Source of the DNA: a virus
Taxonomy: Duplodnaviria > Caudoviricetes
Virus record (IMG/VR): IMGVR_UViG_3300035661_000004
Length of the DNA: 64,000 nucleotides
Reading direction: 5' to 3' (one strand)
The translations under genes were made by a program, and so were the position numbers. How positions within the stretch are numbered: the stretch's first letter is position 1; every line of letters starts with the position of its first letter. The notes under the pieces were generated by a model. It ran no database searches. It was not told the DNA's origin and worked only from the letters and a program-made list of their open reading frames with translations. Shown piece after piece: positions 17,478 through 49,153 of the stretch.

Positions 17478-18548
17478 ATGACACTGAAATTCCTCAAGGA
17501 CTTTCGCAAGAACGCCTCGAAGCTCGAGAACGTTAACCTGGACGCCAAGCCGCCGGCGTTCTGGTACAGCACCGGCAACTATGCGTTGAACCGGATTATC
17601 TCGGGAAGCTATCGCTTCGGCTTCCCGCAAGGCCGCGTGACCGCGCTGGCTGGCCCGTCTGACTCGGGCAAGTCCTTCCTGCTGACCAACGGCATGAAGC
17701 AGGCTCAGGCCGAAGGTGCATACGTGCTCGCCATCGACACCGAGAATGCGCTCGACTACAACTACCTTAAGCGCGTCGGCGTCAACGTGAGCCCGGATCA
17801 CTTCCAGCCTGTGCAGGTCGTGACGGTGAACGACGTGGTCGATGTTTTGTCCGACTTCGTAGGTCTATACCTCAAGGACTACGGGAAGTACAATCCAGAG
17901 GCGCCCAAAGTCTTTGTGGGCATCGACTCGTTGTCTATGCTTTTGACGGAAGCGGAGAACGAGAACTTCTCCAAGGGCGACCAGAAGGGCGACCAAGGTC
18001 AGCAAGCCAAGCAGATCAAGCACTTCCTGAAGACCATGGTCTCCCGGATGAAGATGACCAACATGACGCTGGTCACAACCGCGCACGTCTACTCAGCCGA
18101 CCCGCTGAAGGGCGAAGGCATGTACTCTGTGACGCCGTCCCTGCGCTACGCTTGCAGCCAGATCCCAATCATCACCAAGCTCAAGCTGCGTGACGAGGAC
18201 GCCAAGGGCAACAAGACGACGATCGGCATTCGCCTCAAGGCTGAGACCTTCAAGTCGCGCTTCTCGCTCATCGGCTCAAAGGTCGAGCTCGAAGTGCCGT
18301 ACGATGTGGGCCTGGACCCGACCAGCGGCTTGCTGGAGCGTCTCCGCGAAGACGAGGTCATCACCAAGTCAGCGGCCTGGAACACCCTGGACTATGAAGG
18401 CGTCAGCCGCAAGTTCATGGACAAAGAGCTGACGGCTGAGATCGTCGAGCTCTGCCTCAACCACCCGAAGCTCAAAGCCGTTGACGAGCGCTTCAGCTCG
18501 CTCGATCTTGACGTTGAAGACACACCCGAAGAAGGACTCGCAACATGA
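17478..18548 (+). CDS. uvsX: RecA-like recombinase UvsX
   Basis: STGNYALNRIISG, Walker A GPSDSGKS, IDTENALD, IDSLSML. Confidence 0.92.
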   Translation: MTLKFLKDFRKNASKLENVNLDAKPPAFWYSTGNYALNRIISGSYRFGFPQGRVTALAGPSDSGKSFLLTNGMKQAQAEGAYVLAIDTENALDYNYLKRVGVNVSPDHFQPVQVVTVNDVVDVLSDFVGLYLKDYGKYNPEAPKVFVGIDSLSMLLTEAENENFSKGDQKGDQGQQAKQIKHFLKTMVSRMKMTNMTLVTTAHVYSADPLKGEGMYSVTPSLRYACSQIPIITKLKLRDEDAKGNKTTIGIRLKAETFKSRFSLIGSKVELEVPYDVGLDPTSGLLERLREDEVITKSAAWNTLDYEGVSRKFMDKELTAEIVELCLNHPKLKAVDERFSSLDLDVEDTPEEGLAT

Positions 18549-18741
18549 AGACCATCGAATACAAGCCAGATGACGTGATCATCGCACGAGTGGGCGTCAT
18601 GCCCAGCGCCACGCCTTACCAAGTCAGGTCCACCCTGCAAGGCGTCCGTAGGGCCATCAAGAAGTCCTTCTACAGCAACCAGGTGCTCGTGCTGGCTGAG
18701 ATCGGCGGCCTGGGCGTGGACATCACCTTCGCGAGGAAAGT

Positions 18742-19074
18742 ATGAGCATCAACCTGCAACCTCTTAACGAGCAAGTCTGGGTCCAGCCGTTGGCCCATGA
18801 CAGCAACGAGCTCTACTCCGACGCCAAGGTGGGCCAGCAAGGCGTGCTGACTGTGATCGAGAATCAGAAGGCTCCGTCGCGCGGCATCGTGTTGGCTGTT
18901 GGGCCAGGCAAGCGTGACCAGGTCAACGGCCTGCCGATTCAAATGCCTGCGATCAAGGAAGGTGACATCATCCGCTGGACAGCTGGCTCGGCGATGCCGC
19001 TGGCCTTTGGCAAGCAGAAGATGTGGGTAGTCGCCGGCTCGGCGCTCCTCGGCATCGAGCGAGTCCCGACCTAA
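18742..19074 (+). CDS. groES: Co-chaperonin GroES/Cpn10 (gp31-like)
   Basis: LQPLNEQVWV...GIVLAVGPGK...IKEGDII. Confidence 0.85.
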   Translation: MSINLQPLNEQVWVQPLAHDSNELYSDAKVGQQGVLTVIENQKAPSRGIVLAVGPGKRDQVNGLPIQMPAIKEGDIIRWTAGSAMPLAFGKQKMWVVAGSALLGIERVPT

Positions 19075-33959: not shown

Positions 33960-34460
33960 ATGCAAGGCTTCATCTATCTCTGGCGCGACTCGTTGCGTAA
34001 CATGTACTACATCGGCTCTCATGAAGGAGTACCGACAGACAGCTACACCTCATCGTCGCGTTGGTTCAATGGTGAATATCACTATCGACCTCAAGACTTC
34101 AAGCGTCGAATCCTTAAGATCAGCGACATTGAAGAGATTCGAAAGCTAGAATGGGATCTACTAGCCAGAATTAAGGACTGTGAGTACAATACCAAGTACT
34201 ACAATCAGAAAGTCGGTCGCAAGAAAGGTCAATTGCCATGGAATGCAGGCAAGACAATGTCTGAAGACTATTGTAAAGCTATCAGCGAAGGCCGAAAGGG
34301 GAAAGGCACGGGGAAACCTGCCTGGAACAAAGGGGTAAAGAATCCCAATGCAGCTGAAAATGGACGCAAGTCAGCTGAAAAATTGTCTAAGACAATTACA
34401 GGCAGGAAAATTGCCGTCGTTGACGGTAAGAGGACGTGGGTATATCCTGAAGGGGTGTAG
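33960..34460 (+). mobile_element. GIY-YIG (Seg-like) homing endonuclease
   Basis: GFIY...YYIGSH, YYNQK and PWNAGK/AWNKG NUMOD3 repeats; AT-rich. Confidence 0.85.
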
Positions 34461-34712
34461 CCGTTTCTGTTGCCAAGTACGGCTACGAACTCCGAAGGCT
34501 TATTAGGCCGCCATCGCGTAGACAGAGTCGTTTGCGTTTGTAATGCTTTGCGCTGCTTACGGCAGTCACCTATCGAGCGCCTATGGTCATACTACGCGTC
34601 GGTCGATCGCCAAGTCACCCCCACCGAAGAACACATGATATGTGCTTGGGTGGAGGTGCCGGGAATTGAACCCGGGTGTCGCCGCTTTTCTTACCTTCAG
34701 TTTACGCTGTTC
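34452..34712 (-). ncRNA. ssrA: Circularly permuted (two-piece) tmRNA
   Basis: Acceptor piece (CCGGG-TTCAATT-CCCGG-CACCTCC-A, ending at 34651) precedes the coding piece starting GGGGGTG at 34622; G3.U70 pair; tag GCA AAC GAC TCT GTC TAC GCG ATG GCG GCC TAA (ANDSVYAMAA, 34535-34503); outer ends approximate. Confidence 0.92.
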
Positions 34713-34993
34713 AGCTCTTATTTACTTCCACGGATTCTTGTCGAGCTCTTTGTGCAAACGCTCAACGCCGATCTTGGCGATGTAAGCAGGCCCATCCTCT
34801 GACCACACGAAGAAGATCGGGTTGCCGGTGAAGAACGCCAGCATCACCTGATCCACGGTCTCCATGAAGACAGCGTGGATCATGATCCGTGTGCCCCGCA
34901 TCACGTGCAGCTTCTTGTCCCGCAGGACCACGTCATAGTCAAGCGCAAGTCGGTCGATGAACGTTTGTTGAAGCTCCAGGAGCTTGTTCTTGC

Positions 34994-37711: not shown

Positions 37712-37798
37712 TGGTGCGCCCGGCCGGACTCGAACCGGCACGCCACTGCTGGCGTCAGGACCTAAACCTGGTGTGTCTACCAATTTCACCACGGGCGC
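37712..37798 (-). tRNA. tRNA-Leu(TAG)
   Basis: Cloverleaf with long variable arm, anticodon loop TT-TAG-GT, encoded CCA. Confidence 0.92.
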
Positions 37799-43701: not shown

Positions 43702-43797
43702 TGGCGGAAGGCTGAGTACTCGAAACCCATCCCGCTTGTTGAGAGCGAGACCCTCGGATTAGCAATCCGGTCCAGGCACCTACCTGGTTAACCTTCC
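43702..43797 (-). tRNA. tRNA-Ser(GCT)
   Basis: Cloverleaf with long variable arm, G73, encoded CCA. Confidence 0.92.
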
Positions 43798-44212
43798 ATG
43801 AATTCGCGCTTTACTCAGTCGTGATGATCTTCGAGCGGGTCGTCGTAGAGCCGTACATGTAAGCGTGCGTCAGGCCGTTTGTACAGCACCTCCTCGGACA
43901 CAGCGCAACCTGTAGCCTCCTTCAGGTGGTTGAGCGTGTCGGGAGCGTCACGCAGCGTGATAAGCAAGCTTTGACCAGACGCGCGAAGCACCGTGCCGTA
44001 CTCTGCATTGATTAGCCTTGCGGCGGTTTCGGGCGAGTACTTTGCGTCAAGCCCAACACGGACAATGTACCGCTTTTCCTTGCCAAGTGCTTCTGCAGCT
44101 GGCTCTTGTTCTTCAGCCTTCTTGCCAAAGATTCGGTCCCACCCGCTACGGTAGGAGTCGGTAGTTGACTTGGACTTGAGGGCATCGCCGGTAATGTCGT
44201 TGTGTGCTATCA

Positions 44213-44307
44213 TGGCGGATAGTTGAGTACTCGAAACCCAATCCCTCGTTACCGAAGAATCCCACTGCTTTCCAAGCAGGTCCGGTCACCTAACCGGTTA
44301 ACTATCC
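44213..44307 (-). tRNA. tRNA-Ser(GGA)
   Basis: Cloverleaf with long variable arm, G73, encoded CCA. Confidence 0.92.
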
Positions 44308-44310
44308 ATG

Positions 44311-44396
44311 TGTCCCGTACCGGACTCGAACCGGTACGCCTCTTCCGAGGCGGCAGAGTTTAAGCCTGCTGCGTCTACCAATTTCGCCAACGGGGC
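44311..44396 (-). tRNA. tRNA-Leu(TAA)
   Basis: Loop CT-TAA-AC, long variable arm, one acceptor-stem mismatch, no encoded CCA. Confidence 0.88.
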
Positions 44397-44487
44397 GGTG
44401 GAAGACGGAGGACTTGAACCCCAAGCCACATCTCTGTGACTCCCACTGCTTTCGAAGCAGGTCCGGACCCTGTCCGGTTCATCTTCC
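44397..44487 (-). tRNA. tRNA-Ser(CGA)
   Basis: Loop TT-CGA-AA, long variable arm. Confidence 0.88.
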
Positions 44488-44490
44488 GTA

Positions 44491-44635
44491 AGGTGACAGT
44501 AGGACTCGAACCTACGATGCATAGTCTGTCATGCTAGCTTATGCCATCGGTTCCTGCCATGGGCATGCGAGGGTGATAAGGCCTCTCCGTCTTGACTTGA
44601 CCGCGACGCTGTCTACCAATTTTCAGCATGTCACC
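44491..44635 (-). ncRNA. tRNA-like RNA with an oversized (about 90-100 nt) central region
   Basis: Acceptor GGTGACA/TGTCACC, Leu-type D loop and perfect T arm GTAGG-TTCGAGT-CCTAC, but no canonical anticodon arm. Confidence 0.7.
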
Positions 44636-44636
44636 T

Positions 44637-44719
44637 TGGTGCCCTCGGCGGGACTCGAACCCGCAAAAATCTAGCATCTCAAGCTAGTAGCTGTACCAAT
44701 TTGCATTTATCACGAGGGC
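44637..44719 (-). tRNA. tRNA-Leu(GAG), atypical (short variable loop, long D region)
   Basis: CTAGC-TT-GAG-AT-GCTAG; variable region ATTTTT; encoded CCA. Confidence 0.75.
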
Positions 44720-44767
44720 GTGATGTGTTTGCATTATATTACCTTTTCGGCCAAGGTGATATAAAGC

Positions 44768-44860
44768 GGCGGATGACAGAGGACTCGAACCCCAGCCCGG
44801 GTACTAGCCGAACCGTACCGCTTTCAAGGCGGCCCCGGACGCCCGCCCGGTTTATCATCC
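44768..44860 (-). tRNA. tRNA-Ser(TGA)
   Basis: Loop CT-TGA-AA, long variable arm, G73. Confidence 0.88.
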
Positions 44861-45415
44861 GATGATGAGGTGCTGCAGCTTAGCTACAGCTTCGTTCCAA
44901 GAGGCCCCAATGACGCTGTCAGGAACCCTTACGCTAATGCACCACCGAGGCTCAGCCTCCACGTCAATGGAGTGCGGAACGTCCGTGCGCACGAGCGTAA
45001 GCTCTTGCTTGACCTCATGGCTGTCAATAAGCGTGAGCTCCGTCTTAGGCCATGAGAGGTAGTCTGTCTCGACCATGGTCAGGCTTGCGGCACCTGCTTT
45101 GCCCTCATGCCCTGTGTACCACAGCATCTTGCTCCCCTTGCCGCCTAGGACCCAGTTAAAAGCAAATGCTTTCGGCCTAGTCGGCGTGCTCATGTCGATG
45201 TGCGCGATGGGGCTTCGAGCCCAAGGCTGCTTGTAGAACAAGATAGCCTGGCAGACCGGCAGGCCGATCAAGGTCATCCAGCGTAACCAATCATCGGTGA
45301 AGATGTCGGTCAGCGTAGGGTCATAGATAGCCCAGGGCTTGGGGTCAGCGGGGAGCGTCCAACCAGGTCTTAGGGCGCCCGCTGTCGGGATAGTCAGTTC
45401 ATGCCAGCACTTCAT
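44855..45415 (-). CDS. 2OG-Fe(II) oxygenase-like protein inside the tRNA array
   Basis: AHIDM (HxD), VPHSI, RWCISVR; TAAATA 5 nt before the ATG at 45415. Confidence 0.6.
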   Translation of the reverse strand: MKCWHELTIPTAGALRPGWTLPADPKPWAIYDPTLTDIFTDDWLRWMTLIGLPVCQAILFYKQPWARSPIAHIDMSTPTRPKAFAFNWVLGGKGSKMLWYTGHEGKAGAASLTMVETDYLSWPKTELTLIDSHEVKQELTLVRTDVPHSIDVEAEPRWCISVRVPDSVIGASWNEAVAKLQHLIIG

Positions 45416-46255
45416 GCTGGTATTTAGTCGCCACCGTGCCTCGCGATCCGGACGATGTCCTGGCTGGTCACGATCCGGCACTTCGCTTCGATCTCAGCGA
45501 TGCGGCGCTTGGGAATGTCGTAGTGGTCCTTGTGGAACCAGCAGCGAGCGATGTTGAGCTCCTGCGCCATCAGGTGCAGGTTCTCGATTGAGTAGGGCAA
45601 GCAGATGAGGTGCCTTGCCTTATCGGTCAGGTACTCGAGCTTCACCGCTTGAAGTTTCGGATGGCGTCGGACAGCGGCCCGAGCTCTGCGATCTCTTGGT
45701 CCTTGCGGTGGAAGGTGCAGCTAGGTTGTGAGCGCTTCCGTCCCTTGACAACCGGGTACAGCACGACAACCGGCTGATCGCACCCTGTGCGGTGGCACTT
45801 GTAGGGTGTCAGTTCGGTGCTTGAGCCATGACCGATGCGAGCCTTGCTCTTGTGCGCAAAGATGCCGCAGCTTGGGCAGCGGTAGACGGCGCGGACGCCT
45901 TCGACCGGCTTGTAGTTGTGAACGCAGCTCATTGAATCACCTTGTCGGCGCCGGCTTCCGTGATGGTCGTAATGTAACCCATGCGGGCGATGCGCTCAGC
46001 GGCTTCGATGTAACTGGTGTAGTGGTAAGCGCAACCAATGAGTGGGCTTGCAAAGCAGATGAAGCCTCGCGCAGCAGAGTCCTCGCAGCCTGGGTAGGTC
46101 AGCGGTTGGCCGCGATGAATTCCTGCGACCGCGTTGAACACCTCGACGCCGTCTTTTGTGACTACAATTTGTGTCGGGAAGGTCATGCTGTGCTCCTAAG
46201 TATCGGTTGGCAGAATGGAATGATTGTACATCATCACGATCCGCTTGTAAACACT

Positions 46256-46340
46256 TGGTGCGCCCGGTCGGACTCGAACCGACACGCCTTGCGGCAACAG
46301 ATTTTGAGTCTGCCGCGTCTACCCATTCCGCCACGGGCGC
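46256..46340 (-). tRNA. tRNA-Leu(CAA)
   Basis: Canonical cloverleaf, loop CT-CAA-AA, encoded CCA. Confidence 0.95.
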
Positions 46341-46344
46341 GTGA

Positions 46345-46854
46345 CTAAGTACGTTTCTTAAAACCCCACGTTGGAGTTTGTGTGTGACAGTTGGGACAGA
46401 TCATGCGTAAGTTTTCACGCCGATTGTCCTTGTTATCACCATTAGCGTGATCAAGCTGAAACACTAAGGGCTTGCCATTCCAAGTTTGTCCAAGGCCGCA
46501 TTCTTTACAAATGCCGCCTTGCTCTAACAACACGCGCTCATGGAAGCAGCTCTTAGGAACTTCGTGCCATGGTGCATCTGTTAAGTGGTGCTGCCGTTTG
46601 TCTTTTGCAATACGTGCGGCCATTAAACCGCCCTTGATTCTATCTTCGCGCATCGGCCCTGCAGTAGGTCTTCCTGCTTGATAGCCAGCTCTCAATGTAG
46701 CACTGCTTCTAGCTCGATTTGCTAAGCATTGATTAGCGCTCTTGCAGCAAATGTACTTTCCACTTGCACTAATGAATAGGGCAGTTTGCCCACAGTCGTA
46801 AGCACACATGTGTGCCGTTGAAATTGGTGTAGCTGGTTTAGGTCCGCGTTTCAT
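46345..46854 (-). mobile_element. HNH homing endonuclease inserted in the tRNA array
   Basis: CKEC...QLDHANGDNKDNRRENLRMICPNCHTQT; TAAATA at 46861-46866. Confidence 0.88.
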
Positions 46855-46866
46855 GCTGCCTATTTA

Positions 46867-46951
46867 GGTGCACACGGGGGAGACTTGAACTCCCAATCCC
46901 GAAGGCCACAGTGTCTGAGGCTGTGATGTATACCAATTCCATCACGTGTGC
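46867..46951 (-). tRNA. tRNA-Leu(CAG), with variable arm
   Basis: ACAGC-CT-CAG-AC-ACTGT; Leu-type D loop. Confidence 0.85.
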
Positions 46952-46954
46952 ATA

Positions 46955-47033
46955 TGGTGCCCTAGGCGGGACTCGAACCCGCAGAATTCCGCTTCTGAGG
47001 CGGACATGTTTACCAAGATTTCATCACCAGGGC
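46955..47033 (-). tRNA. tRNA-Leu(CAG), short variable loop
   Basis: TCCGC-CT-CAG-AA-GCGGA; variable region ATTCT; encoded CCA. Confidence 0.85.
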
Positions 47034-47039
47034 GGTGGG

Positions 47040-47120
47040 TGGAGGTAGAAGGAATCGAACCTTCATGACCGAAGTACCGGGGTTACAGTCCGGGCGCTCT
47101 CCATAGGCGTCTATACCTCC
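47040..47120 (-). tRNA. tRNA-Tyr(GTA)
   Basis: Loop CT-GTA-AC, long variable arm, A31.C39 mismatch. Confidence 0.85.
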
Positions 47121-47134
47121 AAGGGTCTTACGGG

Positions 47135-47215
47135 TGGATCAGGATAGGAGTCGAACCTACGTAGCTTTCGCGGGAGCCCAAACTGGCTCCTGGGCTCGTC
47201 TCACCCAGCTGATCC
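47135..47215 (-). ncRNA. Atypical cloverleaf tRNA-like RNA
   Basis: GGATCAG/CTGATCC acceptor, 5-bp D-like stem, GAGCC/GGCTC stem with a 6-nt loop, canonical TTCGA T loop. Confidence 0.65.
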
Positions 47216-47223
47216 ATTACTTT

Positions 47224-47308
47224 TGGTGGGGCCGCAAGGAATCGAACCTTGTTGGTCAGGGACACCGGGTTTACAGGCCGGGCAGAAGCCATTACTGTCT
47301 ACGACCCC
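47224..47308 (-). tRNA. tRNA-Tyr(GTA)
   Basis: Loop CT-GTA-AA, long variable arm, encoded CCA, C31.C39 mismatch. Confidence 0.88.
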
Positions 47309-47350
47309 AAAAGTAAAGCGCGAATTGTTAAAGAGCGTCACACCAATGAG

Positions 47351-47383
47351 AAAAAGCCTCGGACCTTTCGGTCGGAGGCTTTT
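47351..47383 (-). terminator. Attenuator terminator (3:4 hairpin) upstream of the first tRNA
   Basis: AAAAGCCTC-C-GACC-GAAA-GGTC-C-GAGGCTTTTT. Confidence 0.92.
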
Positions 47384-47410
47384 GCTAGGTGTGAAGGTAG
47401 AAGTTCTGTC

Positions 47411-47485
47411 TTACCCGATCATGCAAAAGCCTCCATCGCTATAAAGCGATGAGGAGCTCAAATATGATAGGGAGGTGTTCTTCAT
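47411..47485 (-). CDS. Attenuator leader peptide MKNTSLSYLSSSSLYSDGGFCMIG
   Basis: Codons 5-16 are all Ser/Leu/Tyr; contains antiterminator segment GGAGGCTTTTGC, complementary to 47374-47385. Confidence 0.88.
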   Translation of the reverse strand: MKNTSLSYLSSSSLYSDGGFCMIG

Positions 47486-47494
47486 GATGGTAGA

Positions 47495-47523
47495 ATTGTA
47501 TTTACAGTCGAAGTCGTTGTAAA
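47495..47523 (-). promoter_or_regulatory. Sigma70-type early promoter of the attenuated tRNA operon
   Basis: TTTACA-N17-TACAAT, same consensus as about 11 other copies in the window. Confidence 0.88.
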
Positions 47524-47791
47524 CCGGCTAAAGTGTAACAATCCTACTTGTACCGTTACTTGTTGTCCAACTTGGACTTAGCGAGAGCGGCCAGGCCGTT
47601 CGCTTCTTGAGCCCACTGCTCGAGCTTTGCTGGGTTACGCTTCAGCATCCAGCGGTAGAACCAGGCGCCGACTGCAGCGCCGACGAATGCGCCCACCAGG
47701 AACGGGTGGGTGAGGAAGTTAAGGATGAAGGTGAGGATGTCCCACATGGCGGTCTCCGAACGGCGAGCTTGCCGTGCCTAGTATTTAGCTG

Positions 47792-48523: not shown

Positions 48524-49153
48524 TCAGCTCGTGATGAACTTCGGAGCCAAGTCACGGTACACGCGGCTGCGGTCCTTGTTGGCGATCCGTCCCAACAAGA
48601 AGGCCATCTGATCAGCCTGGATGTTGCGGTTGCGCATGATCATGGCTTCGGCCTTGCACGGGATGTACGGCAGGTAGAGCGGATCCATGGTCCGAGTGCC
48701 TTGCGGGCTGTACTGTCCATGCGGCAGCGGCTTGCCTGGCAGCAAGTCACCCTTCAGGTTGTTGCAGGCCTTGCAGGCCGTGACCACGTTCATCCACACG
48801 TCCGGGCCGCCCTTCGACACCGGCATGATGTGGTCACGAGTCAGGTCATGGCTCGTGAACAAGCCAGAGCAGTAGGCGCACATGTAGCGGTCACGCTGGA
48901 ACAGTGAGGAGTTCGTCAGCGCAGACGGCTTAACCCGCTTGACCGTTGACTCGCCCTTGATGACGATGATCGAAGCCGTCATCAGCTCGGACTGGGACTT
49001 GGTCACGGAGTTGTCACCACCACGGTAGGTGATGAGGTCATCGCCCAGGTGATCCAGGACTTGGCCCTTGGCTTCGCACATGATGGCCTCGTCACGGGTG
49101 ATCCACTCGTGAGGGGTCCAAGACTTGTCGAGTACCAGAACTTGATGCTGCAT
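48524..49153 (-). CDS. HNH endonuclease (McrA-like)
   Basis: VLVLD N-terminus; LFQRDRYMCAYC...TRDHIMPVSKGG...WMNVVTACKACNNLKG. Confidence 0.9.
   Translation of the reverse strand: MQHQVLVLDKSWTPHEWITRDEAIMCEAKGQVLDHLGDDLITYRGGDNSVTKSQSELMTASIIVIKGESTVKRVKPSALTNSSLFQRDRYMCAYCSGLFTSHDLTRDHIMPVSKGGPDVWMNVVTACKACNNLKGDLLPGKPLPHGQYSPQGTRTMDPLYLPYIPCKAEAMIMRNRNIQADQMAFLLGRIANKDRSRVYRDLAPKFITS

Follow-up and report, generated by a model that had tools for sequence, protein, structure and literature searches.

The window analyzed here is a stretch of 64,000 nucleotides (nt) of phage DNA, taken from a 90-kb IMG/VR virus record (IMGVR_UViG_3300035661_000004) as the reverse strand of its positions 11041-75040. 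The record is only about 25% complete (CheckV), which implies a jumbo phage. On the minus strand of the window, rIIA and rIIB homologs, an HNH endonuclease gene, and two small genes without known function lie upstream of a leader that is made up of a promoter, a short open reading frame (ORF), and a terminator, and an array of tRNA genes lies downstream. The original prediction, made from the sequence alone, was that this leader is an attenuator in which a ribosome that stalls on serine, leucine, or tyrosine codons switches on the tRNA genes. The features of the leader and of the first tRNA genes are as follows.

47495-47523, minus strand: sigma-70-type promoter TTTACA-N17-TACAAT (−35 hexamer at 47523-47518, −10 hexamer at 47500-47495; 10 of 12 positions match the consensus)
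47411-47485, minus strand: leader ORF MKNTSLSYLSSSSLYSDGGFCMIG, 24 codons plus a stop, with the ATG at 47485
47438-47473, minus strand: control codons, 12 consecutive Ser/Leu/Tyr codons (codons 5-16; 12-14 in the homologs)
47445-47459, minus strand: segment 1, the 5' arm of the 1:2 hairpin, inside the control codons (from the minimum-free-energy and centroid folds and the RNAalifold consensus)
47423-47434, minus strand: segment 2, GGAGGCTTTTGC, which pairs with segment 1 or with segment 3 (antiterminator)
47374-47385, minus strand: segment 3, GCAAAAGCCTCC, common to the antiterminator (2:3) and terminator (3:4) helices
47351-47379, minus strand: intrinsic terminator, GCCTC-C-GACC, GAAA loop, GGTC-C-GAGGC, TTTTT (hairpin of −16.5 kcal/mol)
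46256-47308, minus strand: first gated unit, comprising tRNA-Tyr, a tRNA-like gene, tRNA-Tyr, two copies of tRNA-Leu(CAG), an HNH ORF, and tRNA-Leu(CAA) (from ARAGORN, Rfam, and, for HNH, PHROGs)

The promoter and the ATG lie exactly where they had been predicted, and the run of 12 consecutive Ser/Leu/Tyr codons is as described. No other run of this kind in the six frames of the window is as long, and 200 windows simulated with a Markov-2 model had no run that reached 12. When the run was shuffled with its dinucleotide content preserved, an all-Ser/Leu/Tyr frame arose in 0 of 20,000 shuffles. The other two frames of the run contain stops and only 1-5 Ser/Leu/Tyr codons.

Relatives of the locus came from uncultured phages. 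The adjacent 227-amino-acid protein has one non-identical relative (56% identity) among 5.8 billion proteins. The rIIB protein has many relatives, and from their contigs we obtained six more distinct versions of the locus, which we refer to by contig (L002, L005, L010, L007, L011, and L013; rIIB identity to the window of 80%, 62%, 61%, 60%, 50%, and 48%, respectively). We compared seven versions, the window and these six, and we call the window, L002, L005, L010, and L007 the five closer versions. (Contigs L003 and L004 are copies of the window itself and were left outside the count of distinct versions, and contigs L008 and L012 stop short of the leader position.) All seven versions have the same order of features: promoter, ATCATG, short ORF, terminator, boxA or a boxA-like sequence, and class II tRNAs for Leu, Ser, or Tyr only. 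From the −35 hexamer to boxA, nucleotide identity to the window is 76-88% in L002, L005, and L010, whereas the neighboring 227-amino-acid gene has only 52-67% nucleotide identity.

The original prediction proposed that the codon run and the helices should be conserved in related phages, and both are kept in the six further versions. All 91 of the run codons in the seven versions encode Ser (49), Leu (29), or Tyr (13), and 13 of the 14 possible codons for these amino acids are used. These are also the only amino acids of the downstream tRNAs, so the predicted match between control codons and tRNAs holds. The runs are SLSYLSSSSLYS (the window and L002), SLSLLSYSSLYLS (L005), SLSSLSYSSLYLSS (L010), LLSLSYSYSSLLSS (L007), LSYSYSSLSLLSS (L011), and LSLSSLYLSSLSS (L013). 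Their order and codons vary, with swaps among Y/L/S, S/Y swaps, and whole-codon insertions, while the composition is constant. Each run is the sole Ser/Leu/Tyr run of at least 10 codons in its locus (six frames), and dinucleotide shuffles of all seven runs gave an all-Ser/Leu/Tyr sequence in 1 of 140,000 cases.

The rest of the ORF is conserved in a different way. It has 22-25 codons in all seven versions, and ATCATGAA, the open frame, and the position of the stop are all kept; the indels preserve the frame. The stop always lies 1-4 codons past segment 2. In L007, an extra G in segment 2 causes a frameshift that changes DGGFC to AGRPL, with the nucleotides and the stop three codons later kept. 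Judging from these sequences, selection past the run is on the RNA, not on the peptide.

The folding of the leader supports three alternative helices. The 151-nt leader folds more stably than shuffled sequences (z = −5.97). The predicted 1:2 hairpin (CATCGCT/AGCGATG, 47451-47434) is present, and in the minimum-free-energy fold it is longer than had been described (13 base pairs, 47459-47427), so most of segment 2 would be sequestered by the control-codon region. As predicted, segment 2 (47434-47423) and segment 3 (47385-47374) can pair over 12 nt without a mismatch, and their duplex has a free energy of about −24 kcal/mol; it is stronger than the corresponding duplex in 499 of 500 shuffles of the ORF. 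In all seven versions, segment 2 is the best partner within the ORF for the 5' arm of the terminator (−19 to −32 kcal/mol; z-scores of −3.0 to −5.2, from 500 shuffles per version), and it occupies codons 17-19 to 22-25, between the run and the stop. The terminator that shares segment 3 was also found as predicted, with a stem at 47379-47356 that has one C.C mismatch and with TTTTT at 47355-47351.

These helices are maintained by compensatory changes in L002, L007, and L011, in line with the covariation that the original prediction suggested looking for. In L002, the last 2:3 pair changes from C-G to U-A: a TGC codon becomes TGT, which is synonymous, and a G outside the terminator stem becomes A. 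In L007, an internal 2:3 pair changes from U-A to C-G and a G-C pair is added. L011 has segments 2, 3, and 4 all rebuilt around GGCC. The 2:3 helix is one G-C pair longer in L005 and L010, and in L013 it is formed by GGAGGCUUUGG with CCAAGGCCUCC. As for the terminator, in each of the five closer versions its loop is of the GNRA type (GAAA or GCAA) and its stem has a single C.C mismatch, and the stem is rebuilt around GGCC in L011 and L013. In L010, a change from A-U to G-C keeps the pairing between the A tract and the U tract. The stem is followed by TTTTT in the window, L002, L005, and L011. The RNAalifold consensus of the five closer versions contains the 1:2 hairpin and the terminator as well as an outer helix (see below).

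We modeled the effect of a ribosome on these helices by masking 28 nt around each A-site codon and computing, from the partition function, how probable the lower stem of the terminator is. In the window, L002, L005, and L010, the terminator has a probability of about 0.9-1.0 without a ribosome and 1.0 if the ribosome is past the run or at the stop, and its probability drops to 0-0.4 if the A site is within codons 5-15 or so. Across the seven versions, the terminator is lost solely when the A site is inside the run in six (the window, L002, L005, L010, L011, and L013). Thus, folding with and without the ribosome reproduces the predicted 1:2/2:3/3:4 switch in six of the seven versions. The model is a thermodynamic sketch of plausibility.

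How the ribosome would load is suggested by the promoter. The hexamers are kept in the homologs, with a diverged spacer between them. The TTTACA-N17-TACAAT hexamers and spacing occur nine times in the 90-kb record (within the window at 47523, 46251, and 43682, minus strand), and this recurrence makes the leader promoter credible. The repeated promoters are probably early ones, used by the host polymerase. Most of the other copies have GGAG and an ATG about 20-40 nt downstream; the leader copy alone has its ATG 9 nt past the −10 hexamer. (The usual 5' untranslated region of this class, G-TTTACA-N17-TACAAT, is about 20-40 nt long and ends in ...CTTAGGAG...ATG.) In all seven versions, the spacing from the −10 hexamer to the conserved ATCATGAA is 9-10 nt and there is no GGAG upstream of the leader ATG, so the leader lacks the sequence for Shine-Dalgarno-led initiation. 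Transcription is likely to start at the A of ATCATG, about 3-4 nt before the AUG. Given the ATG at 9 nt after the −10 hexamer and the lack of a Shine-Dalgarno sequence, the leader ORF is probably leaderless or near-leaderless and translated without one. Just 5' of the −35 hexamer is another conserved sequence:

47528-47541, minus strand: conserved motif TTGTTACACTTTAG

This motif has a single copy in the window and is near-invariant in five homologs despite the divergence of the promoter spacer. It is possibly an UP-like element or a factor-binding site.

One alternative is that the attenuator is a general sensor of translation status: it would report whether ribosomes follow the polymerase (their availability, host shut-off, or coupling), and the codon composition would be secondary. 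The model's prediction of termination without a ribosome in six of the seven versions would fit, a leaderless start would depend on the pool of free 70S ribosomes, and the phage encodes a transfer-messenger RNA (tmRNA) nearby. However, such a sensor would have no need for 12-14 codons for exactly the three amino acids of the downstream tRNAs, which are found in all seven versions with 0 exceptions among 91 codons. We therefore consider a general sensor unlikely.

Two further conserved features, boxA and an outer helix, lie around and beyond the terminator, and both are additional to the original prediction:

47388-47393, minus strand: 5' strand of the outer helix, CACACC, which encloses the terminator
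47339-47344, minus strand: 3' strand of the outer helix, GGTGTG, which abuts boxA; the helix can form only after read-through
47325-47337, minus strand: rrn-type boxA, CGCTCTTTAACAA, ten nt after the U tract and before the first tRNA

The sequence GCTCTTTAACAA (47336-47325, minus strand) has its sole exact copy in the window here. boxA is exact in the five closer versions amid diverging flanks, and in L011 and L013 it has one mismatch each, at position 8. As GCTCTTTAACA, it fits the consensus GYTCTTTAANA, which was derived for gamma-proteobacteria (PMC5725501), and it has every base of the rrn core UGCUCUUUA but the first (PMC6614797). From this similarity, we presume that it is a loading site for NusB/NusE. 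The outer helix covaries (CACACC/GGTGTG, GCATC/GGTGC, and CCCATC/GGTGGG), and together with boxA it gives a hairpin-then-boxA layout, as in the rrn leader (PMC10250234). The gap between the terminator and boxA is too short for a promoter, so boxA can be transcribed by read-through only, which argues that read-through is a designed outcome. (A candidate promoter that overlaps boxA, TGACGC-N17-TTTACT, is weak and fell below the scan threshold.)

The order of hairpin and then boxA also resembles the boxB-boxA-boxC order of the rrn leader (PMC6614797). This raises a second alternative: the leader could be a purely RNA-level element, either a Nus-loading boxB/boxA or a processing site (for RNase III, for example), and both the ORF and its codon bias would be by-products of pyrimidine-rich arms that pair with GGAGG. 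That the outer helix encloses the terminator and abuts boxA would also fit. But the run is specific to one frame beyond what its composition explains (1 of 140,000 shuffles, and stops in the other frames), helical pairing covers only about half of the run, and the ATG, the frame-preserving nature of the indels, and the position of the stop are conserved. This explanation seems very improbable to us. (We also considered whether the GGAGG of segment 2 is a Shine-Dalgarno sequence for a second mini-ORF, ATG ATC GGG TAA, and rejected this because it is not conserved in L005, L010, or L007.)

A third alternative is that the leader is an independent gene for a micropeptide or small RNA, and that the tRNAs are transcribed from other promoters or by polymerase that constantly leaks through the terminator. 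The leader does have its own promoter and a strong terminator, and there are other promoters in the array. Also, small RNAs derived from attenuators and trans-acting leader peptides are reported from Sinorhizobium (PMC6614838, PMC7968998). On the other hand, it is the composition of the peptide that is conserved and not its order, and the C-terminal residues are frameshifted in L007 while the RNA is kept. The conserved 2:3 pairing would have no role in a simple gene, and a boxA right after the terminator requires read-through. Finally, the element is missing where the array is missing: contig L006 (the one such relative examined) has the same upstream genes but neither the tRNA array nor the leader at this locus. 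So we think that an independent gene is improbable.

We propose instead that this is a ribosome-mediated leader-peptide attenuator that sets the level of transcription into the Ser/Leu/Tyr tRNA array by demand-driven feedback. The comparative and thermodynamic tests across seven divergent phages support the 1:2/2:3/3:4 logic of the original prediction, and on the strength of the sequence comparison and the folding model we consider this explanation probable. Host RNA polymerase would start at the sigma-70-type promoter, about 3 nt before the AUG, and a ribosome would load without a Shine-Dalgarno sequence and translate the 24-codon ORF. If decoding is fast, the ribosome would reach the stop and cover segment 2, segments 3 and 4 would pair, and transcription would terminate at the U tract, with the first tRNA still 43 nt away. 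With no ribosome, segments 1 and 2 would pair and the terminator would form too. If decoding is slow, a ribosome that stalls before the last third of the run would melt segment 1 and leave segment 2 free. Free segment 2 would pair with segment 3, the terminator would not form, and the polymerase would read through. After read-through, boxA would be transcribed and would probably recruit NusB/NusE and other Nus factors, and the Nus-loaded polymerase would make a long untranslated tRNA transcript that escapes Rho. As the control codons are decoded by the very tRNAs that are made, this would be a negative feedback loop in which supply follows demand. We infer the efficiency of termination, the binding of Nus factors, and the physiological trigger. 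That the trigger could be a defense tRNase such as PtuAB, as the original prediction proposed, is a speculative possibility.

As for what is controlled, the first tRNA (tRNA-Tyr) starts at 47308, 43 nt past the terminator, as predicted, and the array continues well beyond the first unit:

43702-46251, minus strand: rest of the class II array, comprising Ser(TGA), Leu(GAG)-like, Ser(CGA), Leu(TAA), Ser(GGA)-like, Ser(GCT), and small ORFs, with its own promoter
46251-46223 and 43682-43654, minus strand: additional promoters within the array, each followed by an ordinary Shine-Dalgarno-led gene

Since two promoters of the same class lie inside the array, the attenuator would strictly gate only the first transcription unit. 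Gating of a tRNA operon, as originally predicted, thus holds for the first unit (46256-47308), and the remainder lies behind its own promoters. Relaxed ARAGORN searches and Rfam identify isoacceptors for Tyr(GTA), Leu(CAG, CAA, GAG-like, TAA, and TAG), and Ser(TGA, CGA, GGA-like, and GCT), which appears to be a complete class II set. The tRNAs at 43702-47308 and 37712-37798 (minus strand) are all of class II (with a long variable arm), and there is no other tRNA in the 90-kb record. (The tRNAs of L005, L010, L011, and L013 are likewise class II only.) A more specific version of our proposal is that host class II tRNAs are depleted as a class during infection, by a phage shut-off factor or a defense nuclease, that stalling in the leader triggers the complete phage class II set, and that boxA-loaded polymerase carries transcription through the array. 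We put this forward tentatively and regard it as rather doubtful.

Several observations weigh against the attenuator as we have described it. First, the two in-array promoters would allow much of the array to be expressed independently. Second, the leader is probably not strictly leaderless, as the ATG is about 3-4 nt from the 5' end and not exactly there, and the efficiency of near-leaderless initiation in the host is uncertain. Third, the model is less clear for the more distant versions: L011 and L013 have just 2-3 stall positions that open the terminator (all of them inside the run), and for L007 the antiterminator is favored at equilibrium throughout, whether or not a ribosome is stalled. 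The L007 version is ambiguous in this model unless folding kinetics matter. Fourth, the U tract is interrupted in L007, L010, and L013. Fifth, RNAalifold found only one doubly changed pair among the five closest versions, so its test of covariation has low statistical power; the seven sequences are related and have few independent substitutions. Finally, extra tRNA is no help if stalling stems from amino acid starvation rather than from a shortage of tRNA.

Some of the genes around the leader are irregular. Between the two tRNA-Tyr genes is a tRNA-like gene (47133-47215, minus strand) with an irregular anticodon loop; it is found only by relaxed ARAGORN, with a 4-base anticodon 'gttt'. The first gene after boxA in L005 (13066-13150) and L010 (4655-4742) is tRNA-Tyr-like, with a GTA loop, a T arm, and a CCA end. 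Its D region is aberrant, its variable region is very long, and the gene is missed by ARAGORN. The tmRNA of the window is a permuted two-piece tmRNA with the tag ANDSVYAMAA (34448-34759, minus strand) and matches the Rfam models for permuted and betaproteobacterial tmRNA; L005 has a tmRNA at 18440-18843. HNH endonuclease ORFs lie inside the tRNA array (46345-46854, minus strand) and just upstream of it (48524-49153, minus strand). Gene conversion associated with homing could be one reason why nucleotide identity between phages is high in this region. Upstream of rIIA-rIIB, L005-L008, L011, and L013 encode a PrkA/DUF444/SpoVR trio, cpYpsA, and NADAR, and the SpoVR gene of L008 is interrupted by an intein.

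The window's DNA was found again in metagenomes from sediment and microbial mats, and other searches for the leader gave little. Scans of IMG/VR with a single protein (the 227-amino-acid neighbor or rIIB) found no relatives, and IMG/VR scans with DNA patterns (the helices, the leader core, or the terminator plus boxA) found only the window's own record. The sole contig from a metagenome pattern scan, L009, is a chance match: it is unrelated, AT-rich, and without tRNAs. Against cultured phages, blastn gave just one match, a tRNA-like sequence of 66 nt. The nearest cultured relative by rIIB (40% identity), Ralstonia phage RsoM2USA, has no annotated tRNA genes within 18 kb on either side of rIIB. 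A 198-nt contig from a wastewater metatranscriptome (X8) covers the tRNA-Tyr, boxA, and terminator of a close relative and runs on into a diverged leader spacer (corresponding to 47234-47384 in the window). It is compatible with a read-through transcript but may also come from carry-over of DNA, so we set it aside as evidence.

The proposed system is a known attenuation mechanism applied to a new class of target, tRNA genes. The enterobacterial attenuators include the multivalent leaders of ilvGMEDA and thr as well as trpL, hisL, leuL, pheL, and pheM of pheST. Like these, the phage leader has a short, promoter-proximal, codon-rich ORF and mutually exclusive 1:2, 2:3, and 3:4 helices, of which 3:4 is an intrinsic terminator, and as in the ilv and thr leaders, one leader would sense several amino acids. 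Unlike these, its targets are tRNA genes rather than biosynthetic or synthetase genes, so that the loop would close on decoding capacity; also, it is encoded by a phage, it lacks a Shine-Dalgarno sequence, and a boxA follows the terminator. In our literature search, which covered few of the papers in subscription journals, we found no leader-peptide attenuator of tRNA genes and none encoded by a phage. T-box riboswitches also switch between terminator and antiterminator in response to the status of tRNA, but they bind uncharged tRNA directly, without translation, and control synthetase and amino acid genes in Firmicutes. The leader does not match the T-box or any other Rfam leader family at E ≤ 1 (weak matches to SurA and Rev39 were no better than chance), and it has no specifier loop or T-box sequence.

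Two other comparisons are relevant. In mycobacteria, leaderless polycysteine short ORFs are reported to make cysteine-related operons respond to cysteine supply (Canestrari et al., bioRxiv 10.1101/834739). These ORFs resemble the phage leader in being leaderless, in lying at the 5' end, and in having a run of codons for one class of amino acids. They differ in that their targets are protein-coding operons and leaderless mRNAs are common in their host, while the phage leader precedes a tRNA array, the host of the phage is probably proteobacterial, and the leader has an explicit intrinsic terminator and antiterminator. The other comparison is with rrn-type boxA antitermination (rrn leaders, suhB, and lambda nut), where boxA is likewise promoter-proximal, after a hairpin, and before a long untranslated RNA operon (PMC6614797, PMC10250234). 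Here, in contrast, boxA fronts a phage tRNA array and not rRNA, and we identified no N-like protein or boxC at the locus. Because boxA lies downstream of a conditional terminator, the attenuator would decide whether loading at boxA takes place.

Why phages carry tRNAs and how their expression is timed have been debated for decades. Proposed roles include compensation for codon usage and, more recently, escape from tRNA-cleaving defenses (PMC10264068). If our explanation is correct, then the supply of phage tRNA would be regulated by demand, and leader-peptide attenuation, so far a matter of biosynthetic, synthetase, and resistance genes, would extend to tRNA genes and to viruses. The leader would also be a compact and portable sensor of the capacity to translate particular codons. 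Its coupling to boxA suggests a decision in two steps, with attenuation first and then processive elongation. The exclusive and complete class II set points to some biological pressure on class II tRNAs, and if class-wide depletion of host tRNA is the trigger, then the leader would be a virus-encoded sensor of tRNA depletion.

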